In this document: positions 4,027-64,000 of the stretch, piece by piece | Numbering within the stretch: the stretch's first letter is position 1 | Layout: every line of letters begins with the position of its first letter | Assembly: GCA_026418175.1 (NCBI GenBank) | Contig: JAOABX010000001.1 | Coordinates: forward strand, 68,957-132,956 | DNA length: 64,000 bases | Direction: 5' to 3' | Source of the DNA: Flavobacteriales bacterium | Lineage (GTDB): Bacteria; Bacteroidota; Bacteroidia; CAIKAF01 | The notes under the pieces: generated by a model | The model's input: the letters and a program-made list of their open reading frames with translations, nothing else | Database searches by the model: none | What the model was told of the DNA's origin: nothing | Made by a program: the position numbers and the translations under genes

Positions 4027-4129
4027 GGTATGAATGTTTGAAGCAAATATATTATTTTTTGATGGGAGCGTACAGATAAGTTTTCGACAATCCCTTCAAC
4101 TTTTTTAGATGTTCTACTTTATGGAAAAA

Positions 4130-45111: not shown

Positions 45112-45112
45112 C

Positions 45113-47236: not shown

Positions 47237-47259
47237 TGTAATTTATACACTATGCCTTC

Positions 47260-47901
47260 ATGGATGTAATTTTACAAGGAATATTGGTTGGCTTGGTGAT
47301 GAGTGTTGGTGCTGGCCCGGTGATGTTTGCTTTGATTCAGACTTCTCTGCGGGAAGGTTTTTGGCGAGCCATGATATTTGAAATAGGTGTAATTTTGGCT
47401 GATGCTTCATGCATTACAATTGCTTTTTTTACGTTTGGTCGCCTACTTAATAATCCTTTGATTAACAATTATATCTTATTGGCAGGTGGCCTTGTATTAA
47501 TTGTTTTGGGGGTAAGCAATTTTAAAGGTAAAACAGCCCGTTTGCGTGCAGCTCGCGAATTTTTAAGGGGAAAACAAACTCATGGAGGATTACTCATCGT
47601 TCAGGGGTTTTTGTATAATCTGCTTAATCCTTCGGTAATTTTGTTTTGGCTGGGAGCAGTAACGTTAGCTGCTGCCAATTTTGAAGGGAATCGTTCACTG
47701 ATGATTCAGCATTTTAGTGCTACGCTCACAACTGTTTTTTTCTTTGATACTCTTAAAGCATTTTTTGCCCATACGGTTCGAAAATTCATAACCCCTAGAT
47801 TTATGATGTATTCAACTCAAACAATGGGTGTGATTTTTATTTTGTTTGGCACAGGGCTAATAATTAGAAGCATTATTTCACTTATAAATTTTTACAATTA
47901 G
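47260..47901 (+). CDS. LysE/RhtB-family amino-acid exporter
   Basis: 213 aa, six transmembrane segments, LysE-type N-terminus. Confidence 0.7.
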   Translation: MDVILQGILVGLVMSVGAGPVMFALIQTSLREGFWRAMIFEIGVILADASCITIAFFTFGRLLNNPLINNYILLAGGLVLIVLGVSNFKGKTARLRAAREFLRGKQTHGGLLIVQGFLYNLLNPSVILFWLGAVTLAAANFEGNRSLMIQHFSATLTTVFFFDTLKAFFAHTVRKFITPRFMMYSTQTMGVIFILFGTGLIIRSIISLINFYN

Positions 47902-47990
47902 AATTGTTAACTAAACTCCTATGAACAACCATATACATATTATTAAATTCATCTTGTAACTTCTTTGGTTTTTATACCTTTGACATACTT

Positions 47991-49448
47991 ATGAGTGAAT
48001 CAGTGTACGATACATATGAAGTGGTGGTTGGCTTGGAAGTCCATGCCCAGCTGCTTACTGCATCCAAAGCATATTCATCAGATAGTGCTGCATATGGCGG
48101 AGCACCCAATACATATGTTAGTCCAGTTTCGCTGGGTTTGCCTGGTACATTGCCGGTAATGAATGAAAGGGTAATAGAATTTGCTGTTAAGCTTGGGTTA
48201 GCCTGTCATTGTGATATTCGCTACGAAAACCGGTTTGCAAGAAAAAATTATTTCTATGCTGATCTTCCCAAAGGATATCAAATTACACAGCATACTACAC
48301 CGATATGTGAAAATGGATACATAAAAATAAAAGACGATGCAGGCAATGACAAGCAAATTCGGTTGGAACGAATACATATGGAAGAAGATGCCGGAAAAAG
48401 TATGCACGACCAGGATCCCTTCGATACATTGATTGATTTGAACCGTGCAGGTGTACCACTACTTGAAATTGTTTCCCGGCCAGATATTCGTTCATCCAAA
48501 GAAGCATATAATTACCTTACAGAAATACGAAAATTAGTTCGCTATCTAGAGATTTGCGACGGAAATATGGAAGAAGGAAGTTTACGTTGTGATGCAAATA
48601 TTTCTGTACGAAAAAAGGGCGATGCCGCGTTTGGAAAAAAAGTAGAAGTAAAAAACATGAATTCCATTCGGAATGTACAACGTGCCATCGAATTTGAAGT
48701 AAAACGCCAGATTGATGCTTTGGAAAACGGAGAAGTGATTCGGCAAGAAACTCGTACTTTTGATGCAATTTCCGGAAAAACTTTCCCCATGCGGAGCAAG
48801 GAGATGGCACATGATTACCGTTATTTTACCGAGCCAGATTTGCCCCCAGTATTGGTATCAGAATCATACATTGCTAAGGTTAAAAAAACCATGCCCCCAT
48901 TGCCGGATGAATTGTTTCAAAAATATACTTCCCAGCTTGGGCTTCCAGCTTATGATGCGGCTGTGATAACTGAGTCAAAATACGATGCTTTATATTTCGA
49001 AGAACTTATTTCACATACATCTCATATAAAAGCTGCAGCCAACTGGATGATGGTACAAATCAAATCATACCTGAACGAACAGGGAATTACCATTCGTGAA
49101 TTTCCGTTACCACCTGCCAGAATTGCTGCTATTATTGAAATGATAGAGTCTGGGAAAGTAAGTAATAGTGCAGCATCCCAACAAATTTTCCCGGAAATGG
49201 TTGCACATCCTGATGAAGAACCACTTGCTATTGCTCAACGATTAAATTTGATTCAGGAAAGTGATACTCAGGCTATTGAAGCCATTGTTGATTCAGTACT
49301 TGAACGTTTTTCTAATGATGTTATCCGCTATCGCGAAGGGAAAAAAGGGTTATTGGGAATGTTTATGGGCGAAGTAATGAAAGCTAGCGGTGGAAAGGCT
49401 GACCCCAAGGTAGCCTCAGTTATTCTCAAACAAAAACTTGAAGCTTAA
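47991..49448 (+). CDS. gatB: Asp-tRNA(Asn)/Glu-tRNA(Gln) amidotransferase subunit B
   Basis: 485 aa with the GatB N-terminus YEVVVGLEVHAQL and a C-terminal GatB/YqeY domain. Confidence 0.9.
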   Translation: MSESVYDTYEVVVGLEVHAQLLTASKAYSSDSAAYGGAPNTYVSPVSLGLPGTLPVMNERVIEFAVKLGLACHCDIRYENRFARKNYFYADLPKGYQITQHTTPICENGYIKIKDDAGNDKQIRLERIHMEEDAGKSMHDQDPFDTLIDLNRAGVPLLEIVSRPDIRSSKEAYNYLTEIRKLVRYLEICDGNMEEGSLRCDANISVRKKGDAAFGKKVEVKNMNSIRNVQRAIEFEVKRQIDALENGEVIRQETRTFDAISGKTFPMRSKEMAHDYRYFTEPDLPPVLVSESYIAKVKKTMPPLPDELFQKYTSQLGLPAYDAAVITESKYDALYFEELISHTSHIKAAANWMMVQIKSYLNEQGITIREFPLPPARIAAIIEMIESGKVSNSAASQQIFPEMVAHPDEEPLAIAQRLNLIQESDTQAIEAIVDSVLERFSNDVIRYREGKKGLLGMFMGEVMKASGGKADPKVASVILKQKLEA

Positions 49449-49454
49449 TTAATT

Positions 49455-50615
49455 ATGGTACAATTAAAAAAAATATCTATTCATATTTTGAGCATTAGTC
49501 TTTTGGGCGTATTTTTTTTGAGCAATTGTGGAAATAAGCCCAAAGGAAATCCTTCTATTACAGGAACGATTGAAGGTGCAGGCGGACAAACAATATATCT
49601 AGAAAAGCTAGAGCCTCAAAAAGCAATTATTTTAGATAGTGCCAAAATTGAAGAAAATGGGAGTTTTTCTATTTATAAAAAAGCGGGCGAACATACTTTT
49701 TATCAGATACGTGTTGGAAAACAAAAACCGAATAGTTCCATTGCCCCTAATACCAACATCATGGTAATAATTACCGATTCAACCGAAACACTAAAAATTA
49801 CTGCCACATATCCTACCTGCAGTGCTACTTATGTAGTAGAAGGCAGTGAAGAAACTAATCTGCTAAAGGAAATCAATGCTATTGTACTTGCTAATCAGGC
49901 ACGACTTGATTCACTCAACAAAGCGTATCAGCAAAATCCGCAAGCCTTTGATAAAATAAAAGCAACGGAGCTAATGAATACAATTACGGCAGAGCAATCG
50001 GCCAGCATGAAGGCGTTTGTAGAAAAACATCTTGGGAAGTTTGTTACGCTTCAGGCCATTGCAATGCTTAATCCAGATGCAGATTTGAACCTTTTCAAAC
50101 AATCATCAGAACTTCTTAGTCAGAAATATCCCAATAATCCATTTGTATTGAATTTTTCTTCCAGTGTTGCAAGTTTAACCAAGTTAGCTCCCGGCACTAT
50201 TGCGCCTAACTTTACTATTTCTACGCCAGATGATAAGCCCATTAGTTTAAATGATTTTAAGGGCAAGTATGTACTTATTGATTTTTGGGCATCATGGTGT
50301 CGTCCGTGTCGTGCTCAAAATCCGGAGTTAGTGGCTTTGTATAAGAAGTTTAAAGGGAAAAACTTTGAGATTTTCGGGGTGAGTTTGGATCAGAACAAAG
50401 AAGCCTGGATTCAGGCTATTAAGGATGATAAGCTCACGTGGCCACAAGGCAGTGATCTTCAATACTGGAATGCGGCACCGGCAAAACTTTATAATGTAAC
50501 GTTCATTCCTTTTAATTTTCTCATTGGGCCTGACGGTACAATAATCGCCAAGAATCTTACCGGCAAAGCCTTGGAAAATAAATTACTGGAATTGCTGAAC
50601 AGCAAACAATCGTAG
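49455..50615 (+). CDS. TlpA-like thiol-disulfide oxidoreductase lipoprotein (thioredoxin fold)
   Basis: Lipobox LSNCG and thioredoxin motif DFWASWCRPC. Confidence 0.75.
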   Translation: MVQLKKISIHILSISLLGVFFLSNCGNKPKGNPSITGTIEGAGGQTIYLEKLEPQKAIILDSAKIEENGSFSIYKKAGEHTFYQIRVGKQKPNSSIAPNTNIMVIITDSTETLKITATYPTCSATYVVEGSEETNLLKEINAIVLANQARLDSLNKAYQQNPQAFDKIKATELMNTITAEQSASMKAFVEKHLGKFVTLQAIAMLNPDADLNLFKQSSELLSQKYPNNPFVLNFSSSVASLTKLAPGTIAPNFTISTPDDKPISLNDFKGKYVLIDFWASWCRPCRAQNPELVALYKKFKGKNFEIFGVSLDQNKEAWIQAIKDDKLTWPQGSDLQYWNAAPAKLYNVTFIPFNFLIGPDGTIIAKNLTGKALENKLLELLNSKQS

Positions 50616-50616
50616 C

Positions 50617-51375
50617 ATGCACCAGTTGCTGCCGGGACAGAAAATATATTTTGCATCCGACTTTCATTTGGGCGCCCCCGATTATAAAGCTAGCCGGGAA
50701 CGAGAAGATCGTATTGTTCGTTGGCTTACTTCGATTGAACATGATGCAGCCGAACTATTTCTGGTAGGTGATTTGTTTGATTTTTGGTTTGAATACCGAC
50801 ACGTAGCACCTAAAGGATACATTCGTTTATTGGGAAAGATAGCTTCGTTTACCGATCGAGGCATTCCGGTTCATCTTCATGTTGGGAATCATGATATGTG
50901 GATGTTTGGTTATCTAGAAAAAGAATTGGGGATTACTGTTTCATTTCAACCGGAAGAACGAAATTGGAACGGAATCAATTTTTTGATTGGCCATGGTGAT
51001 GGATTAGGCCCCGGCGATTATGGATACAAATTCGTAAAAAAAATATTTCGCAACCGTTTTTTTCAGTGGAGTTATGCCCGGTTACACCCTAACTTGGCCT
51101 TTGGTGTTGCCAATTTTCTAAGCAGACAAAGCCGTAAAGCCAATTATTCTGCAGATGCTCGATATTTGGGTGATGAAAACGAATGGCTGGTTCAATTTTG
51201 CAAACAACAAGTGCAGCATAAAGCATATCATTATTTAATTTTTGGCCATCGTCACCTTCCTCTTGAAAAAGAAATTCAACCCGGTAGTAAGTATATAAAT
51301 TTGGGCGACTGGATTAAGTACAATACATATGCTGTATTCGACGGGGAAAAAGTAATGTTGAAAACCTTTACCTGA
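50617..51375 (+). CDS. LpxH-like metallophosphoesterase (UDP-2,3-diacylglucosamine diphosphatase family)
   Basis: Metallophosphoesterase motifs YFASDFHLG, LVGDLFDFW, GNHD, GHGD and GHRH. Confidence 0.65.
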   Translation: MHQLLPGQKIYFASDFHLGAPDYKASREREDRIVRWLTSIEHDAAELFLVGDLFDFWFEYRHVAPKGYIRLLGKIASFTDRGIPVHLHVGNHDMWMFGYLEKELGITVSFQPEERNWNGINFLIGHGDGLGPGDYGYKFVKKIFRNRFFQWSYARLHPNLAFGVANFLSRQSRKANYSADARYLGDENEWLVQFCKQQVQHKAYHYLIFGHRHLPLEKEIQPGSKYINLGDWIKYNTYAVFDGEKVMLKTFT

Positions 51376-51457
51376 TAGATAATAAAACATAAGTTGTATT
51401 TTATTAGCCAACTTTTTTAAAAGTTGATGTAATTAAATAAATAAAGTAAATAAAAAA

Positions 51458-51484
51458 GCCCCGCGAGGGGCTTCCCATTTATTA
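51458..51484. terminator. Terminator between convergent genes; acts for gap and possibly for the LpxH-like gene
   Basis: Stem agcccc/ggggct with gcga loop, flanked by an A-run and a T-rich stretch. Confidence 0.55.
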
Positions 51485-51494
51485 TCTACAGTGT

Positions 51495-52496
51495 TTATTT
51501 TTTAGCCAGCATCTCACACAAGTCGGCCAGGCGGTTTGAGTATCCGGCTTCGTTGTCATACCAACCAAATACTTTTACCATGTTGCCTTTTACTACGGTT
51601 AGCGGGGCATCAAATATGCACGAATGTGGATTGCCTATAATATCAGCTGATACTATTTCATCTTCAGTGTATTCTAGTATGCCTTTCAGCGAGCCTTCGG
51701 CAGCTGCTTTAAAGGCAGCATTGATCTCGGCCGGGCTTTTTGGATTTTTTACAATCAATGAAAGGTCTGTAAGTGAACCGGTAGGTGTGGGAATACGCAC
51801 TGATGTTCCGTCCAGCTTTCCATTTAGGTGAGGAAAAATTTTTCCGATAGCTTTAGCTGCACCCGTGGATGTAGGTACAATGGAAAGTGCGGCCGCACGG
51901 GCTCGACGTAAATCTTTGTGTGGAGCATCTTGCAAACGCTGGTCGGCAGTGTATGCATGAATAGTCATCATGTATCCATTTTCAATACCGCAGAGATCAT
52001 CAACTACTTTTACCAGGGGAGAAACGCAGTTTGTAGTACATGATGCATTGGATATAATTTGATCATCGGTTGTAATGGTGTTTTCATTGGCACCCAATAC
52101 AATCATTTTAATATCATCGCCTTTAGCAGGAGCAGAAAGTATAACCCGCTTAGCGCCGGCTTTAATATGACCGGATGCTTTTTCTTTGTCTAAGAATAAA
52201 CCCGTACATTCCAATACAATATCTACCCCCAAATCTTTCCAAGGTAAATTCTCCGGATTTTTTTCGCTCAGCCCCTTGATGGCTTTACCGTTGACAATAA
52301 TATGCTGTTCATCGGCTGAAACAGTTCCATTGAAACGGCCATGAATGGAATCATATTTTAACAAATGTGCCAAGGTGGCATTATCGGTCAGGTCGTTTAT
52401 AGCAACCACATTTACATTAGGTTTGTTTTGAAGGGCACGAAAAGTAATCCGCCCAATGCGTCCGAAGCCGTTAATGGCGACATTGATTTTGCTCAT
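51495..52496 (-). CDS. gap: Type I glyceraldehyde-3-phosphate dehydrogenase
   Basis: NAD-binding motif INGFGRIGR and catalytic SNASCTTNC. Confidence 0.9.
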   Translation of the reverse strand: MSKINVAINGFGRIGRITFRALQNKPNVNVVAINDLTDNATLAHLLKYDSIHGRFNGTVSADEQHIIVNGKAIKGLSEKNPENLPWKDLGVDIVLECTGLFLDKEKASGHIKAGAKRVILSAPAKGDDIKMIVLGANENTITTDDQIISNASCTTNCVSPLVKVVDDLCGIENGYMMTIHAYTADQRLQDAPHKDLRRARAAALSIVPTSTGAAKAIGKIFPHLNGKLDGTSVRIPTPTGSLTDLSLIVKNPKSPAEINAAFKAAAEGSLKGILEYTEDEIVSADIIGNPHSCIFDAPLTVVKGNMVKVFGWYDNEAGYSNRLADLCEMLAKK

Positions 52497-52744
52497 GTTG
52501 AAGATGTTTATGGTTAAAAGTTCGTTATTTCTGGGCGCGAAGATAGTAAATCAGCAGTTTACTTGGGCTGATTTTATCTGTTATAAAAGTCAAGATTTTT
52601 CATTGATTTTTGGGTAGGTTTGGGTTTTCAAGCAATTTCATATAGATTTGTAATTTACAATCTTAACCGATAAAGTTTTAAAATTGTTATATTTTTTTAA
52701 AGTTTGAATCATCAAATTCGCATTAAATATAATTTCATAATCGT

Positions 52745-55015
52745 ATGAGTAGAAAACGCTACACTTGGAACCACGAATGGAAAAAAAGCCTGATATTTAG
52801 TCTGGTTGCCGGTGCCATGGCTTTGACCAATCCGGTGCTTGCACAGCAACCGTATGGCTGTGGCAGCGATATCCACCTGGTTGAAAAAGAATATCCGGGT
52901 ACTTTGTTCAATATGCAGCAATTTGAACAGGAATTCCTAAACTGGATTCAAACCATAGATATTAACCAGCTTGAATTATCTGAATCAGGAACGCGTATTG
53001 TGCCTATGGTTGTGCATGTATTGCATGAAGGTGGAAATGAAAATATTTCCAAAGCCCAAATTCAAAGTCAAATAGTGGCCATTAATAAAGATATGAAGGC
53101 TCAAAATAGCGGGCTTACTACTCCTGCCTTCATTGCGCATCCTACGTTTGATACTTTAGTAGCTAATTACAACCTCGAATTTCGATTGGCTACGAAAGAT
53201 ATGTTTGGTAATTGTACCGATGGTATTGTTCGGGTTTATACTCCCAAAACGAATCAAGCCAAAGATTTTACAAGGTTTAAGCAAGAAAGTTATTGGGACC
53301 GTGATAAGTATTTTAATGTTTGGGTAGTAAAAACCATTTTTAATGATACGCAATATGGAACAATATTGGGGTATGCACAATTCCCATTTGCATTTGGAGG
53401 TCAATATCCATTGACTTCTACCGATGGCGTAGCTGTAATTCACAATGTATTTGGAACAACAGGAACAGCGGCAGGAAATACCGGTGCTACCCTTACTCAT
53501 GAGGTAGGACACTGGTTGGGATTACGCCATATTTGGGGGGATGAAAATTGTGGAAGCGATGGAATTGATGATACACCACAACACAAAGAGCCTAATTTCA
53601 GTGGCCCTTCTTGTTTTTCAATTCCTAAAACAGCAACTTGCTATGAACCTGGCTTTAATGATTATCTCAGAGATACAATTGGTGAAATGTGGATGAATTT
53701 TATGGATTATACGGCAGATCAGTGCTTGTGGATGTTTACCAAAGGCCAAAAAGCATTATCTGATTTTGTATTTAATACCATTGCTTTCCGCGGAAATCTG
53801 ATTACTAATGCCAATAATGTTGCTACCGGTACAGATGATGCCAGTTATGCGGCCCCATGTTCTCCTGCTCCTATTGCTGATTTTTGGAGCCGGAGTGGTA
53901 CGAATGAGCTTATTTCTACAAAATTGCTTTGTGCCGGAGGGCAGCTTACATTTGCTAACGGAACCTATAACGCTACACCTACTTCTATTGATTGGAATTT
54001 TCAAGGTGGAAGTCCTTCCACATCAACCGCCAGTGCCCCAACCATTACTTATAACACTCCTGGAGTGTATGATGTAACACTTACTGCTACTAATGCGCAG
54101 GGAAGCAACACTAAAACACGCGACGACTATGTACGTGTTTATCCAAATCAAGCTGATGAAGCCAGCTTTATCTACTATGATTCCTTTGAATATGGCTCTT
54201 TGTATGATCAAGGCAAATGGTTAGCAGTAAATGAAGGAAATCAAACCAATGGATGGGAAAATTTTGCAGCCGGTTATCTGAGTAATCGTTCTATGCGCAT
54301 GCGAAATGAAAGTAATGTACGATTTGAAACTGATGCCCTTATTTCACCCATGTATGATTTAACTACCATTGACAATGATCAGTTTACATTCCGCTATGCA
54401 TATGCTGTTCGAACTAACAATCCGTTTGTAGAACAAACCGATCGTTTGGAAGTTTATGTTTCTACAAATTGTGGTCAAAACTGGACTAGAAGAAACATAA
54501 CGGTGGATAACCAAACCGCTTCAAATCTCAGTGGTGCTCGTTTGGTTACGGCAGGCCTTGATCCGGATGGGTTCGTGCCTACAAGCCCGTTACAATGGAA
54601 ACAGGCTTCCGTAAATATTACTCCATACGTTAATAATAACAACGTGCGTTTTATGTTCCTATGGACTTCTGGTGGCCCATATGGTAATGATTTCTTCCTG
54701 GATGACATTATGATTCAGAATTCTCAGGCCATCGGTATTGAAGAAGCTACTGCTGGACAAACCGGATTTAAGGTATTCCCTAACCCTGTTTCATCTGTAT
54801 CACAAGTGTATTTCAACCTGACACAAAGTGGTGATGTACAAATCGATTTGTTGGATATTACAGGCCGGGTGGTTGGTAACGTATTCAATGGCACCCTTAA
54901 TGCAGGCGAGCAGACCTTCCAGATTGAACACAGCCGTTTCCAGGCTTCCGGTATTTATATCGTTCGTCTGATTGTGAATGGTGCTGTTTCTACTCAGAAA
55001 ATTGTAGTTGAGTAA
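52745..55015 (+). CDS. Secreted M43 (pappalysin/ulilysin-like) zinc metalloprotease with a PKD domain and a T9SS C-terminal domain
   Basis: Zinc motif HEVGHWLGLRHIW followed by a Cys-rich region and DDTPQ. PKD-like ITYNTPGVYDVTLTATNAQG. CTD FPNPVSS...GIYIVRLIVNGAVSTQKIVVE. Confidence 0.75.
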   Translation: MSRKRYTWNHEWKKSLIFSLVAGAMALTNPVLAQQPYGCGSDIHLVEKEYPGTLFNMQQFEQEFLNWIQTIDINQLELSESGTRIVPMVVHVLHEGGNENISKAQIQSQIVAINKDMKAQNSGLTTPAFIAHPTFDTLVANYNLEFRLATKDMFGNCTDGIVRVYTPKTNQAKDFTRFKQESYWDRDKYFNVWVVKTIFNDTQYGTILGYAQFPFAFGGQYPLTSTDGVAVIHNVFGTTGTAAGNTGATLTHEVGHWLGLRHIWGDENCGSDGIDDTPQHKEPNFSGPSCFSIPKTATCYEPGFNDYLRDTIGEMWMNFMDYTADQCLWMFTKGQKALSDFVFNTIAFRGNLITNANNVATGTDDASYAAPCSPAPIADFWSRSGTNELISTKLLCAGGQLTFANGTYNATPTSIDWNFQGGSPSTSTASAPTITYNTPGVYDVTLTATNAQGSNTKTRDDYVRVYPNQADEASFIYYDSFEYGSLYDQGKWLAVNEGNQTNGWENFAAGYLSNRSMRMRNESNVRFETDALISPMYDLTTIDNDQFTFRYAYAVRTNNPFVEQTDRLEVYVSTNCGQNWTRRNITVDNQTASNLSGARLVTAGLDPDGFVPTSPLQWKQASVNITPYVNNNNVRFMFLWTSGGPYGNDFFLDDIMIQNSQAIGIEEATAGQTGFKVFPNPVSSVSQVYFNLTQSGDVQIDLLDITGRVVGNVFNGTLNAGEQTFQIEHSRFQASGIYIVRLIVNGAVSTQKIVVE

Positions 55016-55037
55016 TTGATAGTTCTTGTAAAAGAAT

Positions 55038-55070
55038 AAAAAGCCGGAGCGATGCTCCGGCTTTTTTTAT
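55038..55070 (+). terminator. Rho-independent terminator
   Basis: Stem agccggagc/gctccggct with gat loop, followed by a T7 run. Confidence 0.6.
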
Positions 55071-55383
55071 GGATGTAAATCAGTGACCAGGGTGGATTTC
55101 TTTTTTGTTTTTTCTCTTCTTCGTTTTCTGATTCCCTTTTACCAGATTTGATTTTGATGAACCGGAAATTGAATAATGAAGGTTTATGGCTATACCAATC
55201 TAGAATGGGATTGATGATTTCTTCCAGAAAAATAGACCCGGGAATCCGCTTTTTTGACAGGCTTGTCCGCATTGTTAGTCTACTGTGGCTTCGGCTGATT
55301 GGTGGCATCTTGTTTTATAGTGAAGTCTGAATGCACTATGCAACTGCTAACGCGCTGATTTGAATTGTTGTATGCACAGAAAA

Positions 55384-55845
55384 TTATTTGGTCAGTTTAA
55401 TTTGACCCATTCTATTGGCTTTGGTGGCAAGTTGCTCCAATTTCTCTGAAATTTCTGCCATGTGTTCACGAACCTTATTAGCCTGTTGAAACTTATATTC
55501 ACTTAGCAATTGTTTTTTTTGTTGTTGTAGTTTCTCCAGTTCGTATTCTAGTCGGGCTTTTTCCTGGTTGATGGCTGTGAGTTGTTCAAGCATATTCATA
55601 CTGAAAAATTTCCGGGCCTGCTGGCTAAAGTCCAGGTATTCTTTCTGGTCAGCTTCCGGCAGCGATGCTATAGCCTGATCCAGTTCTTTCAATCGGTGTT
55701 TTGCTTTCTCCAGCAAGGCGCGTTCGCGTACCCGTTGCCGGGTAGCTTTCAGGTATTCTTGTTTTTGAATGGCTTTGGCTTTTAACTGTACTGCCTGATC
55801 AAATTCACGTTGCAAGGTAATTAGATCCTGAATTATTTGATTCAT
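55384..55845 (-). CDS. Coiled-coil protein of unknown function; third gene of the WYL-associated cassette
   Basis: 153 aa, almost entirely heptad-like and Lys/Glu/Gln-rich, with no transmembrane segment or signal peptide. Its start lies 2 bp from the stop of the upstream gene. Confidence 0.45.
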   Translation of the reverse strand: MNQIIQDLITLQREFDQAVQLKAKAIQKQEYLKATRQRVRERALLEKAKHRLKELDQAIASLPEADQKEYLDFSQQARKFFSMNMLEQLTAINQEKARLEYELEKLQQQKKQLLSEYKFQQANKVREHMAEISEKLEQLATKANRMGQIKLTK

Positions 55846-55847
55846 AT

Positions 55848-56174
55848 TTACATTTTAGCCATTAATTGAAATAATTTGTTTTTAATACACCAGGTTTCTT
55901 CTTCTGTAAAAACATTTTTTAAACGGTTTTCACTGCCAATAATTGTTTTTTCTTCATCCACTTGTACAGATTCTAACAAGCGCCGAAGGGTTTCAATTTT
56001 TTCGATCAGAGTTTTTGCTTCATTGTCATCCAATTTTCGCTTTTCCCAATCTTCAATTTGTGCTTTTTTTTCTGCGGCTTCCAGTTTTTTCAATTCTAGA
56101 TTAATTCGTTTTTCTTCCTCTTGAAGGTTTGTAGAACGTTTGGAAGTCTTTTTTTGTGATGCTGAAGTTTTCAT
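55848..56174 (-). CDS. Small coiled-coil protein of unknown function; second gene of the cassette
   Basis: 108 aa with a Lys/Ser-rich N-terminus followed by a Glu/Lys coiled coil. Tightly coupled to both neighbours. Confidence 0.45.
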   Translation of the reverse strand: MKTSASQKKTSKRSTNLQEEEKRINLELKKLEAAEKKAQIEDWEKRKLDDNEAKTLIEKIETLRRLLESVQVDEEKTIIGSENRLKNVFTEEETWCIKNKLFQLMAKM

Positions 56175-56187
56175 ATCTGTCTGATTT

Positions 56188-56691
56188 TTAATCTCTAAAA
56201 GGGGTTAATTCAATTTCGTAAAAATTAAAATAGGAGCTGTCTCCAGGCTCTTTTTCTATAAGGTCTATTTTTTTCCAGGATTTGGGTATGGGTGGAAATA
56301 CGAGTTGAAAAGACAGGTTTTCTTTGTAATGTTGAAATTCATGTTTGTTCGGACTTATCGGTATGTATAGCGCCTCCCTCATGGGCAAAATTTCATCGGT
56401 ATCGCTTTTTCGGATAAAAGTTTCCGGCTGGATTCTTACCCAACCTCCATTTATAAATTCTGGCTGGGCATAATACATAATATGAATGATCGTATTTTTT
56501 TCAGAAGAATTGATTGACAGAATTTCACAACATCTTCCACAGGTGCTGAAACGGTACCTCGGGCGCTGAACTGGATATTTCAATAAGTCAATAAGTTCAT
56601 GAAGTATGGTATTTAGTTCCTCGATGCGTTTGTTTTGATTTGCCATAATTCTATGCATAATTTTTATGCAAGAACGCAAAGCAAAACGCAT
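56188..56691 (-). CDS. Hypothetical protein with a CxxCC motif; first gene of the cassette downstream of the WYL regulator
   Basis: 167 aa as given; an alternative start at MANQ (56646) gives 152 aa. N-terminal helix followed by CGRCCE, then a β-rich C-terminus. No recognisable family. Confidence 0.45.
   Translation of the reverse strand: MRFALRSCIKIMHRIMANQNKRIEELNTILHELIDLLKYPVQRPRYRFSTCGRCCEILSINSSEKNTIIHIMYYAQPEFINGGWVRIQPETFIRKSDTDEILPMREALYIPISPNKHEFQHYKENLSFQLVFPPIPKSWKKIDLIEKEPGDSSYFNFYEIELTPFRD
56653..56669. promoter_or_regulatory. Perfect palindrome TGCATAA-N3-TTATGCA at the start of the first cassette gene (candidate operator)
   Basis: Read directly from the sequence. Lies 7 nt upstream of the MANQ start codon. 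Confidence 0.3.
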
Positions 56692-56766
56692 TCTATATCC
56701 GGTTTAAAAAAAAAAGAAATTTTTTTTAAACAAATATTCAGTACTATAATTGATGAGAAAACGTTA

Positions 56767-57783
56767 TTATCTCAATGATTTTACAGGCATAGATGCTAAC
56801 AAATGTTTTTTTCTCACAGACTCAGCGAGCCAATTCGGCGACAAAATTGTAACCTGATGCCCGTAAGAAAGTAACAGGCTTTCCAGTTCTACCGTAACAT
56901 AAACATCTAAGGTAATTTCCAGTGGGCCTCGCTTTGATACAACCTGCTGGGATGGATGTAAAGGTTTTGATACAATATAAGGTTCCAAATCCGAAGTAAA
57001 ACGAAGGTGGATACGTTCTTTTTTTCCTTGGGTACTTCGTGTTATGCCTATACAATGTTTAAAATATTCTTGTGGGTCAAATTTCCCTGAAATATGAAAC
57101 GGATGCCGGGCAAGTTGTTTTAAGCGGAGTATTCTATCCAGGCCAAAAGTACGTATTTCGTGGTGTTTTTCACTGAATCCAACAAGGTACCAGGCACCTC
57201 GATATTCTTTTAAAATATATGGGTGTACTATTAATTCGCTACTGGTTTTTCGCTGATATGAAAAATGCAGAATTTGTACCGGATGTTTTTTTTCAATGGC
57301 TTTTACTAGCTTATCAAACACAGGCAAATGATTTCCATTTTCATTTGTTTCAGGCATAATAAAAGTATGGGCATAAGGACCGGCTTGCTTATCTATGGCT
57401 AAATATTTGTATATTTTTTCCAGGGCTTTGACGTAGTTTTTCCCAATAGTAGTTGAACGCAATGATCGCATAAAAGTGAGCGCTGCATCCAAGGCCTCTA
57501 ATTCTTCATCGTCAATCAACAAATGATCTATCGAATATTGGGGGTTTTTGTAATAATAGCCGTTGTATCTTCTACTAAAAGCAATGGGTGCAAAAAAACC
57601 AAGTTCTTCATCTTCTTTCATGGCTTTAATATCTTTTTGAATGGTAGAAATGGCAAAGGGCTTTCCTATCCTTTCTTCCATTGTTCGTCGGATGTCTTCC
57701 ATGGTAGGATAAGGCCTTCGCTTATTAAGCAGCATCCGATTGATGATTTTATAGCGTAGCAAGGCATCTTTATTTAGCGGCAT
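56767..57783 (-). CDS. HTH-WYL-WCX transcriptional regulator (BrxR/CapW/YafY-like)
   Basis: N-terminal wHTH (LLRYKIINRMLLNKRRPYPTMEDI), a WYL domain containing EYRGAWYLVGFSEKHHEIRTFGLDRI, and a C-terminal WCX-like region. Confidence 0.7.
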   Translation of the reverse strand: MPLNKDALLRYKIINRMLLNKRRPYPTMEDIRRTMEERIGKPFAISTIQKDIKAMKEDEELGFFAPIAFSRRYNGYYYKNPQYSIDHLLIDDEELEALDAALTFMRSLRSTTIGKNYVKALEKIYKYLAIDKQAGPYAHTFIMPETNENGNHLPVFDKLVKAIEKKHPVQILHFSYQRKTSSELIVHPYILKEYRGAWYLVGFSEKHHEIRTFGLDRILRLKQLARHPFHISGKFDPQEYFKHCIGITRSTQGKKERIHLRFTSDLEPYIVSKPLHPSQQVVSKRGPLEITLDVYVTVELESLLLSYGHQVTILSPNWLAESVRKKHLLASMPVKSLR

Positions 57784-58257
57784 AGATTTATTATTTATTT
57801 TATTGTTCCAATTTTATATTATCTTGTAACCTATAAAAAAACAATTGCATTATTTACAAATCAATTTGACAGATGCTTTATTTATACTAATCATTTGATT
57901 GATTCATTTTTTAATTCATTTTTGAAATTCTATGTAATTCTTTTTTCAATCAGCGAATTTCTTTACTTTATTTCAATTTTTAATTTTTTATGTATGAAAT
58001 GATAAGTACCAAGATAATATTTATGAAGTTTACATAGTTTATATATAAAATACAATTCATTTGACTTTTACATAACATCTCATGGGGGGTATGAAATTAT
58101 AAAAAAGTATAATGTAAATTATTATTTCCATATTCATTAACAAATGTTGATGTAAGATTACAACTTTTTGATAAAAAATTTAAATATGGTATTTATAAGT
58201 TTGTTTTGTAATTTAAATCAAAATGCATCAATATTTTTAAATGTTAGTATTTAAGTT

Positions 58258-60840
58258 ATGACAAAAAAATCAATTCTGCTTTTGATAAAACGCATTTCTA
58301 TTGCGTTTGCAGGATTTGTATTACTTATAATAATCGCAACGTTTGTTCTCCTTTATTTTTTTCAAGACCGTTTAATTCGTTTGGCCATAGATGAAATCAA
58401 TCAAAACCTAAATACAAAAATAGAAGTAGAGCAGATTGATCTTACGTTATGGAAAAAATTTCCACAAGCTTCACTTCAGTTTAAAAATGTACGTTGTGAT
58501 GAGGTAACCGAACAGCCTGAAAAAAAGAAATTGCTTAAAGCTGAATCAGTTTTTTTGTCATTTGATATTTGGGATTTCTTTACCGGGAATTATACTTTTA
58601 AACGAATTGATATAGTGAATGCCAACGCGTACCTTCGGATTAATAAAAAGGGAACGACCAATTTTGATATACTTAAAAAACAGCAGCAAAAAACTAAGAA
58701 TGTTAAATCTGGCCAGACTTTTCAGTTCAACAAAGTTATGTTGAAAAACGTATTAGTAGATTTTGAGAATGAGAAACTTCAGCATGTAGTGCAAGTTACC
58801 GTTCAACAACTTGATTTAAAAGGTAAATTTTCAGAAAAACGTCATACTTCGAGATTACGTGGTAAATTTTTTATTGACCGATTGGTGCTTCATGATGAAA
58901 CGTATATGCAACATCGACACGTTGAATTAAATATGGGTTTTGACAACAATACTGAAACCAAACAAATTACTATTGATAAAGGAAAGATTAGTATTGAAAA
59001 TTTAAATGTAGAAGCATCTGGTATTATTCGTACCGATAGTACTGGATATGTTGATCTAAACCTGGTAGGAAAAAAACTCAACATTCAATCTTTTATTTCA
59101 TTGTTACCAGGCGAATGGCGTAAGTTTGAAAATGAATACCAAAGTGAAGGTGAATTTTTCTTAAAAAGCTGGATTCGTGGCAATACTTCACATGGGAATG
59201 TTCCCGACATGGAAATTAATTTTGGAGTTCGCCAAGGGGCTGTGACATACAAGCCAACACAGACCCAAATGAAAAACTTAAATCTAACCGGTCGATTCGT
59301 TTCGGTGAAAAATGGCAGAGAGTGGGGGATGTATATAAATGATTTTGATGGTATATTAAAAAAATCAAAGCTCTCCGGAAAATTTAGTTATGAAATGCTG
59401 AATCATCCAGTAATGAAGTTTTCTGCCAAAGGGTCGGCAGATTTAGCTGAGATTTATGCTTTCATGCCAATACCAGGTATTTTGTCTATGCAGGGATTGA
59501 TAGAGTTGGATGTAGCTTTTGAAGGATCATCACATAATGCCCGCGAATTTACATTTAATGACTATCAACGCAGTTTGCTCAATGGAACAGCTAATCTAAA
59601 TAATGTTACTGTTCAAATGAAAAATCAACGTCATCCGTTTCGTGGTATGAATGGGACCTTGGAGTTTAATCGGAGTGATGCTACAATACGAAATTTAAGC
59701 GGTAATGTTGGAAGCTCTGACCTTACCCTGAATGGTTCAGTAAAAAATCTCCCGGCATATTTATTTGTTTCCGATGCTCCGCTTCAAATTGATGCAGATG
59801 CTCGTTCATCCAGCGTACTATTACATGAATGGTTAAGCAATGAAGAAAAGGAAAAACCAGTTGGTCAACCGGTACATGAATTTCGATTAAAATTACCGGA
59901 ACGAGTAAATGTATCTCTAAACATGCAAATTGACAAACTGGAATTTAATAAGTTCAGCGCTGAAAATATTCAGGGTATATTTACTTTCCGTAATCGCTCA
60001 TTACAAGCAGAATCAGTAACTATGCATGCTTTTGGTGGGCTTGTAAAACTTAGTGGTATTGCTAATGGCAAAGAAGAATCATTTATTCGAGTTAATGTTG
60101 AAGCATCGCTTCAGGGAATTCAATTAAACAGGCTGTTTTATGAATGTGGGAATTTTGGCCAAAAAACCATTACTCACGAAAATTTAAACGGGAATGTAGA
60201 TGCTTTTATCATCATGAGTATGCATTTTACAGATGCATTAAAAGCGGAGTTGCCTTCAGTATTAGTTAATTCGCAACTTACCATACAAAATGGAGAGTTG
60301 ATTCGTTTAAAATCGCTGGATGCATTATCAAAATTTATCCGGGTAGAAGAATTGCGCCATGTTAAATTTGCAACGTTAACCAATCAAATTCGTATTGAAA
60401 ATGAAACCGTCATAATTCCCGAAATGCAAATTAATTCATCGGCTATAAATCTTGTTTTGTCAGGTACTCATACATTTAAAAATCAGATTGATTATCGCTT
60501 TAATGTGCTTTTGAAAGATTTGTTGGCTCAAAAATTTAAGAAGAATCGAAAGCAGCAGGAGTTTGGAGAAATTATCGAAGAAGAGGGAACCGGAGCCAGA
60601 CTCTACTTGAAAATGACAGGTACTGCCGATGATCCTATTGTGGCTTTTGATACAAAAGGTGTACGAGAAAAGATAAAACAGGATTTGAAAGAAGAAAAGA
60701 AAGATTTAAAACAAATGTTGTACGAAGAATTTGGTTGGTTTAAAAAAGATACAACCATTCGTAAAGAAAATCTTTTACCCCCAAAACAGCGAAATAATAA
60801 AAACAAAATCAACAATTCGGATGACTTTGAGTTTGAATAA
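58258..60840 (+). CDS. AsmA-family outer-membrane assembly protein
   Basis: 860 aa with an N-terminal transmembrane anchor and AsmA-like N- and C-terminal regions. Confidence 0.7.
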   Translation: MTKKSILLLIKRISIAFAGFVLLIIIATFVLLYFFQDRLIRLAIDEINQNLNTKIEVEQIDLTLWKKFPQASLQFKNVRCDEVTEQPEKKKLLKAESVFLSFDIWDFFTGNYTFKRIDIVNANAYLRINKKGTTNFDILKKQQQKTKNVKSGQTFQFNKVMLKNVLVDFENEKLQHVVQVTVQQLDLKGKFSEKRHTSRLRGKFFIDRLVLHDETYMQHRHVELNMGFDNNTETKQITIDKGKISIENLNVEASGIIRTDSTGYVDLNLVGKKLNIQSFISLLPGEWRKFENEYQSEGEFFLKSWIRGNTSHGNVPDMEINFGVRQGAVTYKPTQTQMKNLNLTGRFVSVKNGREWGMYINDFDGILKKSKLSGKFSYEMLNHPVMKFSAKGSADLAEIYAFMPIPGILSMQGLIELDVAFEGSSHNAREFTFNDYQRSLLNGTANLNNVTVQMKNQRHPFRGMNGTLEFNRSDATIRNLSGNVGSSDLTLNGSVKNLPAYLFVSDAPLQIDADARSSSVLLHEWLSNEEKEKPVGQPVHEFRLKLPERVNVSLNMQIDKLEFNKFSAENIQGIFTFRNRSLQAESVTMHAFGGLVKLSGIANGKEESFIRVNVEASLQGIQLNRLFYECGNFGQKTITHENLNGNVDAFIIMSMHFTDALKAELPSVLVNSQLTIQNGELIRLKSLDALSKFIRVEELRHVKFATLTNQIRIENETVIIPEMQINSSAINLVLSGTHTFKNQIDYRFNVLLKDLLAQKFKKNRKQQEFGEIIEEEGTGARLYLKMTGTADDPIVAFDTKGVREKIKQDLKEEKKDLKQMLYEEFGWFKKDTTIRKENLLPPKQRNNKNKINNSDDFEFE

Positions 60841-61384
60841 ATCGAGATTTATTATCGGAATATTGCTTCTTTTTGCCTGTCGTACTCCGTATTTTATTCG
60901 ACCAGTAATAGCTGATAAAAATTTAAATAGAGCAGTATTTTTAGTTCGGATGAATGATATAATAGCTGAGGATGGCGTGGTTGAAAAACTTGGAAATGTT
61001 TTTCATGAAGGTGGTTTTACACCGGTAATTCCTTTTTTTACAAATGCATTTCTTACTTCTGAAAAAGTAGAAACAATTTTTAAGGCAGATAGTGTTGCCA
61101 TTCGCCAATTAAAAATTCCAATTTCTGTATCATGGCTTGTATTAGCTCATTTTAAGCACTATGCTATTGAGAATACAAGTGCCAATAATGGCTTGTATGA
61201 AATGTCATGTATGGTTGAAATAAAACTTATTAGTGTCCAAAGTGGACAAATCATTAGAACCTGGAAATTTTCTGAGAGCGGAATTCATTCAGAGTTTGAT
61301 CTGGCCACCCAACTATCGCTTAGTAATCTTTGGACACATCTTCAAAAAAATTTAATATATGAATTAAAATCGCTGTTACCTTAA
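60821..61384 (+). CDS. Lipoprotein of unknown function
   Basis: Start MTLSLNKSRFIIGILLLFACRTP (lipobox) overlaps the AsmA stop in a different frame. The six-frame ORF begins earlier, at 60731. Confidence 0.45.
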   Translation: MTLSLNKSRFIIGILLLFACRTPYFIRPVIADKNLNRAVFLVRMNDIIAEDGVVEKLGNVFHEGGFTPVIPFFTNAFLTSEKVETIFKADSVAIRQLKIPISVSWLVLAHFKHYAIENTSANNGLYEMSCMVEIKLISVQSGQIIRTWKFSESGIHSEFDLATQLSLSNLWTHLQKNLIYELKSLLP

Positions 61385-61608
61385 TAAATATATCCCTCAA
61401 TAAAAATTTTTGTTAAAAACGTAGCTCGTCACATTATATATATTGTTTCAAATCACAATAATTTCGTGTGATAAATTACGGTGTTTTTAGGGTTTTCATC
61501 AAAAAATAATTCTGTAATTATACAAGAATAATATTCAAAGCCAATGAATTGATTTGGCTGGGTTGAGTAAGTGTCATTTAAGATTATTTCAACCTGATTT
61601 TTATTCCG

Positions 61609-63801
61609 ATGATTTACCCTTTTTTTCTTACGTTTGCTGGGATTAATTTTTATTGCATGAAAAAATATTGGTTGTTATTTGTTGTTACATTACTATTCAT
61701 TCGGTCACTTTGGGCAGTAGAAGGAATGTGGCTTCCTATTTTGCTCAAAGAAATTAATGAAAAAGAAATGAAGGCAATGGGTATGCGCATTAGTGCCGAA
61801 GATTTATATTCCATCAACCGTTCCAGCCTTAAAGATGCTGTATTTTTATTCGGGGGGGGGTGTACCTCTGAAATCATTTCTTCTCAGGGCTTATTGCTTA
61901 CTAATCATCATTGTGGGTATGGTCAAATTCAGTCACATAGCTCATTAAAAAATGATTACTTAAAATATGGATTTTGGGCAAAATCGCTTAAAGACGAACT
62001 TCCTAATAAAGGGCTTACTGCTACCCGAATTGTTCGTATGGAAAATGTTACAGATGATGTTTTAAAAGGCGCAATAAAGTCAGACGGTACTCTTGAGCAG
62101 TCCATTGTAGATGCAAACAGCAAACGAATTGCCCAGCAAAGTGTACAAGGTACACATTATGAAGCTTCAGTTAAGCCTTTTTATTATGGCAATGAATATT
62201 ATCTTTTTATTACTGAAACCTTTAAAGATATCCGTTTAGTTGGCACACCTCCATCGTTCATTGGTAAATTTGGTGGCGATACAGATAACTGGATGTGGCC
62301 GCGTCACACCGGTGATTTTGCAGTATTCAGAATATATGCCGGTGTTGATAACAAACCGGCTGAATACAGCGAAAATAATGTTCCATACAAACCGCTTCAT
62401 CATTTTCCCATTTCACTTAAAGGGGTACAGCCCAATGATTTTACTTTGGTGTATGGATTCCCCGGACGTACTCAGCAATACCTGCCTTCTGCCATGGTAA
62501 AGCTCACTATGAATGATTTGAACCCGATACGTATCCAGATTCGGCAGAAAGCCTTATCAGTAATAGATAAAGCAATGGCCAGCAGCGATGAGTTACGTAT
62601 AAAATATGCAGCCAAACAATCGCGAATTAGTAATGCATACAAAAAATGGATTGGTGAAAATCGAGGATTGAAAAAATTAGATGCTATTCGAATCAAACAG
62701 GAATGGGAGAGCCGATACTTGCAGGCCGTAAAAGGTACTCCATACGAATCATTGGTTCAACAGTTTAATAATTTGGTTGAAAACTTCAGGCCTTACGCCC
62801 TAGCCAATGATTATTACAATGAGTTCATCTTCTCAGGACCTGAAATTATTCGTTACACAAATAACTATGTAAAATTTATTAAATCTTATCAAGAACTAAA
62901 ATCTAAAGGAGAACTTGATAAACAAATTCAAGCTTTAAAATCAAGCGCTGAAGGTTATTTTAAAAATTATGATAAAGAAGTAGATCGTCAAATTATGTTG
63001 GCGGTGCTTCCTGTTTTTACTTCTGGATTGGATGTTGAAATGTTCCCTCAGGTCTTAAAGGATGAACTTTCGAAATATAAAAATGATATTCCTGCTATGA
63101 CAAATAGTTTATATGCTACCACCTTGTTTGCAGATAAAAATAAAATTTTGGGCTGGCTTGAAAATGTTAATGAAAAGTCTATTAAAAAAATGATGGCAGA
63201 TCCCATGTATAAAATTACTGATAACTTGTATCAAACCTATCAAGATAAAATTGATAAAGTGTATAAAGAGTACTTTGATAAAATACAAACTGCCATGTTT
63301 GCATTTCTCAAATCTTTACGCAAGTATTTGCCTAATGATCGTCGTTATTATCCCGATGCTAATAGTACACTGCGTGTTTCTTATGGCAAAGTGGAGGGGT
63401 ATTCTCCCAAAGATGGGATTGTTTATCATTGGCAAACTACTGTTGATGGAATTATTCAGAAGTATATTCCTAATGATACTGAATTTGATTTGGATCAGCG
63501 ATTCATTGATTTGTATAAAAACAAAGATTATGGGCGCTATGGTTCCAATGGTACATTGCCTGTAGCTTTCACAGCATCTAATCACACAACCGGAGGTAAT
63601 TCTGGTAGTCCGGTACTAAATGCTAATGGTCATCTAATTGGCATAAATTTTGACCGTGCATGGGAAAGTACCATGAGTGATATTATGTATGACCCGGAAC
63701 GTTGCAGAAATATTATATGCGATATACGATATGTGTTGTGGGTTATTGATAAATATGCTGATGCAACTCATTTGGTAAATGAAATGACAATAATTGAATA
63801 A
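61609..63801 (+). CDS. S46-family dipeptidyl-peptidase (DPP7/DPP11-like)
   Basis: Catalytic His motif LLTNHHCGYG, C-terminal Ser motif GGNSGSPV, and a helical insertion domain. The likely start is MKKYW (61658). Confidence 0.85.
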   Translation: MIYPFFLTFAGINFYCMKKYWLLFVVTLLFIRSLWAVEGMWLPILLKEINEKEMKAMGMRISAEDLYSINRSSLKDAVFLFGGGCTSEIISSQGLLLTNHHCGYGQIQSHSSLKNDYLKYGFWAKSLKDELPNKGLTATRIVRMENVTDDVLKGAIKSDGTLEQSIVDANSKRIAQQSVQGTHYEASVKPFYYGNEYYLFITETFKDIRLVGTPPSFIGKFGGDTDNWMWPRHTGDFAVFRIYAGVDNKPAEYSENNVPYKPLHHFPISLKGVQPNDFTLVYGFPGRTQQYLPSAMVKLTMNDLNPIRIQIRQKALSVIDKAMASSDELRIKYAAKQSRISNAYKKWIGENRGLKKLDAIRIKQEWESRYLQAVKGTPYESLVQQFNNLVENFRPYALANDYYNEFIFSGPEIIRYTNNYVKFIKSYQELKSKGELDKQIQALKSSAEGYFKNYDKEVDRQIMLAVLPVFTSGLDVEMFPQVLKDELSKYKNDIPAMTNSLYATTLFADKNKILGWLENVNEKSIKKMMADPMYKITDNLYQTYQDKIDKVYKEYFDKIQTAMFAFLKSLRKYLPNDRRYYPDANSTLRVSYGKVEGYSPKDGIVYHWQTTVDGIIQKYIPNDTEFDLDQRFIDLYKNKDYGRYGSNGTLPVAFTASNHTTGGNSGSPVLNANGHLIGINFDRAWESTMSDIMYDPERCRNIICDIRYVLWVIDKYADATHLVNEMTIIE

Positions 63802-63820
63802 CTTTGGAAAAAAATTTGAT

Positions 63821-64000
63821 ATGAAAAGATTAGTTTTTTTCTTATTACTTGCTGCAATGGGTTCTTCAGGATGCGATACATTAACCGGAACTTTTACTGC
63901 TAATATTAATGGTCAGGCCTGGAATCCTCCTTTACCAGTTGCAGTTAGAACAGGAAATAGATATACCATTACCGCTGCTTCTTCCGATAAGCAAATGATA
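63821..64000 (+). CDS. 5' end of a lipoprotein gene that continues beyond the window
   Basis: MKRLVFFLLLAAMGSSGCDT lipobox. The frame is open to the end of the window. Confidence 0.35.
   Translation, partial: MKRLVFFLLLAAMGSSGCDTLTGTFTANINGQAWNPPLPVAVRTGNRYTITAASSDKQMI

Follow-up and report, generated by a model that had tools for sequence, protein, structure and literature searches.

The 64,000-nucleotide stretch of Flavobacteriales bacterium DNA analyzed here (the window; contig JAOABX010000001.1, positions 68,957 to 132,956) carries a minus-strand block of four genes in which a WYL-domain transcriptional regulator is followed by three small genes, designated orfA, orfB and orfC. The four genes are a genuine unit, and the regulator very probably controls the three open reading frames (ORFs) that follow it, as judged from a conserved dyad and the promoter geometry around it. 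No description of such a module was found in family libraries or in the literature on WYL proteins in Bacteroidetes/Bacteroides or on DUF932, in keeping with an earlier reading made from the letters alone (the sequence-only reading), which had proposed the block as undescribed. The block is a module, very probably WYL-controlled, for which a concrete scheme of regulation can be given; it belongs to a kind of system that is already known. In the explanation favored here, with a confidence that is about even, the block is the local form of a widespread Bacteroidota WYL regulon that is DriD/PafBC-like, probably responsive to single-stranded DNA (ssDNA) and equipped with effectors of a binding type. 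The four genes, which lie where the sequence-only reading had placed them, are:

56767-57783, minus strand: WYL regulator gene, 338 aa; WYL and WCX domains, with an N-terminal presumed winged helix-turn-helix (wHTH)
56188-56658 (longest ORF form 56188-56691), minus strand: orfA, 152-156 aa; N-terminal helix and immunoglobulin (Ig)-like beta-sandwich
55848-56174, minus strand: orfB, 108 aa; charged, presumably helical
55384-55845, minus strand: orfC, 153 aa; helical hairpin (residues 2-60) and long helix (residues 64-152)

The regulatory evidence centers on the spacer between the WYL gene and orfA, where alignment of the corresponding spacers of close relatives reveals a 21-bp dyad with the consensus AAACG[C/G]A-N7-T[G/C]CGTTT. 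Among these relatives, the dyad block outdoes the adjoining coding sequence in nucleotide conservation, and the dyad is also found beside WYL genes in very distant loci. When occurrences are counted at a threshold of 12 of the 14 specified positions, 39 dyads are present in 238 kb of WYL loci (25 related loci) compared to 2.5 expected, an enrichment of about 15-fold, while the maximum reached by shuffled sequences is 7 (n=200). The 64-kb window has three dyads compared to 0.75 expected. Only the full dyad is informative; the 9-mer ATGCGTTTT taken by itself shows no enrichment, with 3 matches in the window versus 1.5 expected. The dyad and the promoter box that accompanies it are:

56684-56704: 21-bp dyad, presumed WYL site, minus-strand sequence AACCGGATATAGAATGCGTTT; its nucleotides are conserved in all close relatives
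56669-56676, minus strand: presumed -7-type box GTTCTTG, its G 15 nt past the dyad

The dyads precede WYL genes, orfA paralogs, DUF932 genes and other small genes, and are positioned: (i) 36-62 nt upstream of WYL start codons, (ii) between WYL and the following gene, which is orfA or DUF932, (iii) immediately past the first orfA, and hence ahead of the next gene, in loci whose WYL and orfA genes overlap, and (iv) about 39 nt upstream of divergent orfA operons. Bacteroidota promoters have a -7 consensus of TAnnTTTG, of which TT(T)G is the end. Across all loci, a TT(T)G ends 15-17 nt past the dyad at 21 of the 22 target promoters, which represent about 14 groups separated in evolution; a distance of 21 nt is seen at three promoters of WYL genes themselves. 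With the 15-17 nt spacing, the dyad comes to lie at about -40 to -20, the usual place of the -33 element, and the dyad-bearing promoters have a -7 box and no -33 box. Since a conserved dyad and a -7 box at fixed distance precede orfA here and orfA-type genes in distant relatives, control of the three ORFs by the WYL protein, as put forward in the sequence-only reading, is very probable. A dyad-like GAACGCA-N7-[T/A]GCGTTT is also noted within the WYL coding sequence of L010, L014, L016 and L017, four related loci that share its position about 502 nt ahead of the WYL stop.

The dyad narrows the choice of start codon for orfA. Of the range of 152-167 aa first given for the protein, the 167-aa form is rejected because its start codon (ATG 56691) lies inside the conserved dyad and reads CTG in locus L005. 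The start is thus ATG 56646 (152 aa, aligned with L008) or ATG 56658 (156 aa, the NCBI call). A palindrome, TGCATAA-N3-TTATGCA, that had been taken for the binding site at 56653-56669 is located at 56654-56670, where it overlies the presumed -7 box and the transcription start region; it is rejected as an operator, as its left half alone is conserved.

The regulator protein matches the Pfam models WYL (PF13280, residues 154-222, E=4.1e-17) and WCX, the C-terminal dimerization domain (PF25583, residues 255-325, E=1.1e-8), both above the gathering score. The N-terminal 100 residues form the most conserved part of the regulator across loci, with 47-81% identity where the whole protein has 34-52%, and include a putative recognition segment, STIQKDIKAMKED, that is essentially invariant and mirrors the invariant operator. 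The nearest solved proteins by sequence search of the Protein Data Bank (PDB) are 6sj9 (PafBC) and 7p5x, both at E of about 1e-8. The latter is deposited as 'Transcriptional regulator-like protein' and is taken here to be mycobacterial PafBC. In the same search BrxR (7qfz) scores E=0.3 against the window regulator, and at E<=1 no chain named CapW is matched and DriD is also not among the matches.

The four genes encode real proteins under purifying selection, as the pairwise ratios of nonsynonymous to synonymous substitution (dN/dS) are 0.03-0.33 versus four orthologous loci, with synonymous sites near saturation. By gene, the ratio is 0.04-0.09 for WYL, 0.03-0.23 for orfB and 0.10-0.33 for orfC. 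The small genes are closely spaced, with gaps of 13 nt (orfA/orfB) and 2 nt (orfB/orfC) as first described, and are conserved together. All contigs that carry a close homolog of any of the three small genes hold the whole WYL-orfA-orfB-orfC block. The block adjoins a DUF748/AsmA-like gene in four of the five distinct relatives, while the other flank is an M43 peptidase gene or, in L002/L003, metK; in L008, the AsmA-like neighbor is replaced and the left neighbor differs. A rhomboid-family gene is located between the AsmA-like gene and WYL in L001 only (3252-4370). With metK in place of the M43 peptidase gene in some relatives and the rhomboid gene in L001, the surroundings have been reshuffled around an unbroken four-gene block, which is passed on stably within a narrow clade.

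WYL and orfA co-occur across Bacteroidota. A scan of species-representative genomes with the regulator recovered 20 WYL loci (34-86% identity) from Flavobacteriales, Bacteroidales, Chitinophagales and Sphingobacteriaceae, and WYL is immediately followed by an orfA-family gene in 15 of the 19 loci that could be evaluated. The WYL stop often overlaps the orfA start, and a second orfA paralog is frequent; at L027, the orfA-family gene is 2.8 kb from WYL. When sampled from the orfA side, WYL is present in all three informative contexts, twice as WYL-DUF932-orfA and once as WYL with three orfA paralogs. Relatives of orfB and orfC are confined to the window clade and its nearest outgroups. L032/L036 (WYL 49% identical) have the order WYL-DUF932-orfA-orfB, with orfB at 63% identity and a short orfC-like ORF behind it. 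In L030, where WYL is 52% identical, orfA is followed by a coiled-coil protein of 144 aa that resembles orfC (hhalign E=0.0016). Thus, orfA is a widespread core partner of WYL, while orfB and orfC are lineage-restricted additions, and the co-occurrence of WYL with the three ORFs across Bacteroidota, an issue raised in the sequence-only reading, holds for orfA and not for the other two. The outgroups also carry a DUF932 gene that is absent from the window; from their WYL-DUF932-orfA-orfB/orfC-like order, the window version looks like a branch that lost DUF932. Among the other genes behind dyad-controlled promoters is one for a protein of 357-388 aa (cluster c7; L016 2030-4168 and L023/L025 7505-8671), which is found in a WYL-orfA-c7-orfA arrangement and in a divergent c22-c7-c21 operon. 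The c7 protein has no Pfam, PHROG or PADLOC match, and an assignment of its 388-aa form as 'DUF932-like' is rejected, as BLAST shows no similarity.

The orfA product is a soluble, cytoplasmic Ig-like beta-sandwich module that is predicted to function in binding. While only 7 close homologs (66-71% identity) are found among 5.8 billion proteins, orfA belongs to a family of about 707 clusters that has no Pfam model and, thus, is not an orphan. In Pfam, 148 of 150 family representatives have no match and two match DUF5643; the family profile has no match in the PDB. The statement that none of the three small proteins has a recognizable family therefore stands for Pfam, NCBIfam, PADLOC and PHROGs, where all three give sub-threshold noise only, and has to be revised for orfA. 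The beta-sandwich resembles YcdA, YjhA and MPT63, and these fold neighbors are binding modules, not enzymes; comparison to viral structures gives only weak DUF4352/DUF5067 matches. Membership in these groups is not implied at the sequence level, as DUF4352/YcdA/YjhA/MPT63 proteins share only 7-11% identity with orfA, which has no Pfam match. Proteins of the DUF4352/YcdA/YjhA/MPT63 type are secreted or lipoproteins; by contrast, the window orfA and most of its stand-alone relatives are without a signal peptide. The CxxCC motif pointed out in the sequence-only reading is present in orfA as CGRCC but is not conserved: only the last Cys is invariant, with C51 a Ser in P0002 and C54 a Tyr in P0005. 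A metal site at this motif is accordingly rejected.

Domains of the orfA type also occur in fusion proteins. In P0061 and P0092, an orfA domain is joined to a C-terminal helical region with a UVR-type motif (YEKATEMRDLE), and the Pfam UVR motif is detected in one member of the orfA-family census. Other orfA domains are fused to peptidases or to an AAA ATPase, and the AAA module of one such fusion resembles IetA/TRIP13. The P0008 protein (L028 2125-4518) is a secreted protein of 797 aa with a trypsin-like peptidase domain and three orfA-type beta-sandwich domains, and signal peptides are likewise found on the peptidase fusions P0059 and P0088. The use of the orfA fold thus extends beyond the cytoplasm. 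No WYL gene is present among the four genes on the short contig (L028) that encodes P0008.

The orfB and orfC products are charged but not the 'almost pure' Lys/Glu proteins of the initial description, which overstated their Lys plus Glu content (33% in orfB and 24% in orfC). Only 4 clusters of orfB and 9 of orfC are found among the 5.8 billion proteins. Within the clade, orfB is 79-82% identical with a mean column identity of 92%, and its central 60 residues are almost invariant; its profile has no match in the PDB. The closest relative, L008 (WYL 86% identical), has orfB as two tblastn pieces (2098-2417; 51% and 60% identity) that abut at 2226, a pattern that could stem from a frameshift, from faster divergence or from misassembly. 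The AlphaFold2 model of orfC (predicted local distance difference test, pLDDT, of 83) has a hairpin of helices 2-27 and 31-60 (pLDDT about 80-88) followed by one long helix, and the UVR-like motif AIQKQEYLKATRQRVRE starts in the turn after helix 1 and runs into helix 2. By Foldseek, this model matches only generic helical bundles in the PDB, with nothing better than E=0.19. In its predicted hairpin, orfC may resemble proteins of the UVR motif (UvrB/UvrC, the ClpC M-domain and McsA); unlike these proteins, it has no significant match to a UVR model, including Pfam UVR (PF02151), to which no match is found at E<=1. A kinship of orfC to the UVR motif is thus a lead rather than a finding. The comparison of orfB to the C-terminal part of the P0061 fusion is not significant. 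None of the orfA, orfB and orfC products has a hydrophobic or membrane segment, and none has a toxin or antitoxin domain in Pfam, NCBIfam or PADLOC.

The block is flanked by a convergent M43 peptidase gene and by the DUF748/AsmA-like gene, with long non-coding DNA on both sides. Upstream, the spacer between WYL and the AsmA-like gene measures 474 bp (57784-58257), as reported earlier, compared to 229 bp in L002 and L005; its GC content is about 20-29%, and it has many A/T-rich imperfect inverted repeats, no ORF of at least 36 aa and no Rfam match. Downstream of orfC, the gap is 368 bp (55016-55383) rather than the 313 bp given before, and it includes a hairpin:

55038-55066: hairpin with a 13-bp perfect G+C-rich stem and T-runs to either side, 318 nt past the orfC stop; likely a bidirectional terminator that also serves the M43 peptidase gene

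An Rfam search of 54900-58400 gives sub-threshold matches only, on this hairpin. The approximately 300 bp between the orfC stop and the hairpin (55067-55383) have no counterpart in relatives, in which the gap is 62 bp (L005) or 91 bp (L001). A 104-aa ORF on the minus strand (54994-55308) crosses the hairpin and is probably spurious.

The sequence-only reading had interpreted this setting as an inserted island, possibly of variable presence. This interpretation is unsupported, because the block is intact in all relatives found, no tRNA (45000-64000 of the window) or flanking direct repeat around the block is detected, and the GC content of the genes (35-43%) is like that of the flanks (38-44%), with only the intergenic spacer AT-rich. 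In a Pfam census of 112 neighbors at related loci, most are housekeeping, and integrase, conjugation and restriction-modification families are absent from the 25 most frequent. PADLOC gives no match for orfA, orfB, orfC or 9 of 10 companion proteins, the exception being a generic AAA module. A tblastn search with two orfA proteins against 50,697 phage and 72,556 plasmid records finds no orfA relatives.

Taken as a mechanism, a controlled promoter with the dyad at about -40 to -20 would drive the translationally coupled orfA-orfB-orfC operon. By analogy to DriD, PafBC and CapW, the WYL domain would most likely sense ssDNA or a related nucleic-acid signal that arises from DNA damage or invading DNA, and the WYL protein, having sensed this signal, would turn the operon on. 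Activation in the manner of PafBC and DriD is favored over repression because the operator keeps a fixed distance to the -7 box and a -33 box is missing, while the half-site geometry of DriD, the promoter likeness to PafBC and the PDB scores compared to that of BrxR favor an ssDNA-responsive activator of the DriD/PafBC type. The orfA, orfB and orfC products, in which no enzymatic domain is found, would most likely act jointly as a binding or adaptor complex and not as a catalytic effector. That orfA and the helical proteins reside in one complex is suggested by the UVR-motif fusions, the close spacing and the co-conservation. In a bolder version, which is possible but doubtful, WYL, the dyad and the orfA family would constitute a Bacteroidota-specific, ssDNA-triggered stress regulon that is the counterpart of DriD/PafBC, and the effectors would be a new complex of Ig-sandwich and UVR-like coiled-coil proteins, possibly an adaptor of an AAA+ unfoldase/protease or a blocker of replication or division.

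Several observations weigh against this explanation. We infer the binding of the WYL protein to the dyad from co-conservation only. Of the HTH-WYL-WCX architecture assigned in the sequence-only reading, the WYL (4e-17) and WCX (1e-8) domains are borne out, but the HTH is presumed: the N-terminus has no Pfam HTH match at E<=1, and a 19-sequence profile of residues 1-100 finds nothing significant in the PDB. The -7 box is predicted from sequence and is degenerate in the window (TTCTTG), and a dyad that overlaps the -33 region fits a repressor equally well. The best PDB sequence match of orfC, the ClpC1 UVR motif, is not significant (E=0.18), nor is its colinearity with the C-terminal region of P0061 (E=0.19). 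The regulon was viewed within about 10 kb around each WYL gene and, thus, is possibly larger or of a different role. A further dyad of the window does not fit the scheme:

58288-58308: second dyad AAACGCATTTCTATTGCGTTT, perfect (14/14), 30-50 nt inside the 5' end of the DUF748/AsmA-like ORF

This perfect dyad is 505 bp upstream of the WYL start, and the window is without a WYL-proximal dyad. The relatives have not kept the right arm of the perfect dyad; in them, a dyad is found about 37 nt ahead of the WYL start.

Other explanations place the block in defense or on mobile DNA. The sequence-only reading had drawn an analogy to BrxR/CapW, in which case a WYL repressor of this type would silence an anti-phage cassette and orfA-C would be new non-enzymatic effectors released on infection. 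WYL regulators of such architecture often precede defense systems (PMC9122601, PMC11662680), two sampled relatives are beside restriction-modification genes (type II on the P0010 contig and type I HsdR in L038), and both the fusion of one orfA domain to an IetA/TRIP13-like AAA module and the overlap of dyad and promoter are compatible with this view. However, the PADLOC result is negative for orfA-C and nearly all companions, the neighbors are mostly housekeeping, and the block is intact in all relatives found, mostly beside the DUF748/AsmA-like gene, with no orfA relatives in the phage and plasmid records searched. The products have no nuclease, NTPase, pore or other killing domain, the regulator is similar to BrxR at E=0.3 compared to 1e-8 for PafBC, and the dyad is upstream of the -7 box whereas the BrxR site is downstream of the -10 element. 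The defense analogy is, on these grounds, considered improbable. The block might instead be a domesticated remnant of a mobile element, in which WYL presided over early establishment or anti-restriction genes and from which the window clade lost DUF932 and fixed the rest chromosomally. The nearest outgroups (WYL 49-52% identical) do carry WYL-dyad-DUF932-orfA, DUF932 matches the phage family phrog_1221 (4e-21) and is described mainly from mobile-element contexts, and the neighborhoods of the module vary between orders and include RhuM, DUF5131 and RmuC. Such an origin is nonetheless quite unlikely, since no integrase, relaxase, conjugation or tRNA marker is near any locus, orfA relatives are absent from the plasmids and phages, and all four genes are under strong purifying selection at a stable chromosomal position.

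Two further proposals concern the roles of the small proteins. WYL and orfA could be a regulator/co-regulator pair in which orfA modulates or senses for WYL, with orfB and orfC as unrelated lineage-specific genes, possibly of a housekeeping or envelope role with the AsmA-like gene. The overlap of the WYL stop with the orfA start in many loci, where the dyad comes only after orfA, is typical of partners made at a fixed ratio, and the AsmA-like gene with its perfect dyad near the 5' end, together with the restriction of orfB and orfC to a narrow branch, points the same way. By contrast, in the window branch and outgroups the dyad precedes orfA, which makes orfA a target and not a segment of the transcript that encodes the regulator; the 13-nt and 2-nt gaps tie orfB and orfC to orfA, with which they are co-conserved, in L032 as well. 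The dyad on the AsmA side is not conserved; L008 has another neighbor in place of the AsmA-like gene, and in L001 the rhomboid gene comes between the AsmA-like gene and WYL. There is, accordingly, little probability in this proposal. A toxin-antitoxin-like or growth-arrest module, in which one small protein would arrest growth or division like DidA and the others would neutralize it, is suggested by small, tightly coupled genes behind a stress-type regulator and by DidA as the best-known target of DriD (PMC10853764). No toxin or antitoxin family is matched by the three proteins, however, and conservation is strong and even over all three genes. DidA is a small membrane protein, unlike the orfA, orfB and orfC products, none of which has a membrane segment. 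The arrest module is thus highly improbable.

The reading as a DriD/PafBC-like regulon with binding-type effectors would be of consequence beyond the window. In Actinobacteria and Proteobacteria, WYL regulators are known to switch responses to DNA damage and to phage. To our knowledge, the regulation of DNA-damage responses in Bacteroidota is poorly understood, and the literature on WYL in Bacteroidetes yielded no assigned role for the PafBC-like proteins of this group, which are noted as abundant (PMC6789036). For Bacteroidota, the module provides a concrete, testable unit: a subfamily of regulators, the 21-bp operator predicted for them, which keeps a fixed distance to the promoter box, and a core family of targets that comprises about 700 clusters. 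The dyad enables regulon prediction in any complete Bacteroidota genome and the direct design of binding and reporter tests. If the cargo is indeed a binding-type, non-catalytic effector of stress or immunity, it would represent a new type of output for WYL-controlled systems.

Among the known WYL systems, BrxR and CapW, which repress BREX, CBASS and defense islands, share with the window regulator the domain order, the position upstream of and co-directional with the cargo, and an inverted-repeat operator. BrxR is a repressor whose binding site, 11-bp repeats separated by a 5-bp spacer, is downstream of the -10 element (PMC9122601). The sequence similarity to BrxR amounts to E=0.3 only, and the cargo described here is without a defense family and outside of a defense island. 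SiwR of Mycobacterium smegmatis is a WYL activator of adjacent genes only that acts under genotoxic stress (PMC10693628). Compared by description only, SiwR is alike in its control of adjacent genes. The SiwR cargo reportedly consists of DinB/YfiT-like putative metalloenzymes, whereas that of the window is non-enzymatic.

PafBC, the activator of a LexA-independent DNA damage response in Actinobacteria, includes the closest solved relatives of the window regulator. PafBC-dependent promoters have no -35 element but a regulator site in its place and a -10-type box (PMC8635444), which resembles the geometry predicted here, and PafBC, like CapW, senses ssDNA (PMC11662680, PMC11804915). Unlike the window regulator, which is encoded by one gene, PafBC is a heterodimer or a fused tandem; it binds a non-palindromic -26 element only with RNA polymerase, while the site in the window is palindromic, and it controls about 150 genes compared to an apparently local regulon. 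DriD of Caulobacter crescentus is a wHTH-WYL-WCX homodimer that is switched on by ssDNA, binds CGxC-N7-GxCG palindromes with AT-rich centers and activates didA along with further damage-response genes; it also has a site in its own promoter, and DidA, a small division inhibitor, is the best known of its targets (PMC10853764). The module of the window differs from DriD in the bases of the half-site, in phylum and in having soluble targets that are unrelated to DidA; for the window regulator, ssDNA sensing is a prediction. By contrast, the half-site geometry is the same (CGxC-N7-GxCG versus CGCA-N7-TGCG), with 4-bp cores that contain CG and stand 7 nt apart around an AT-rich center, and the two systems are alike in a single-gene, presumably homodimeric WYL-WCX regulator, in a site within the regulator's own promoter, as found in relatives of the window, and in targets that are small, non-enzymatic proteins.

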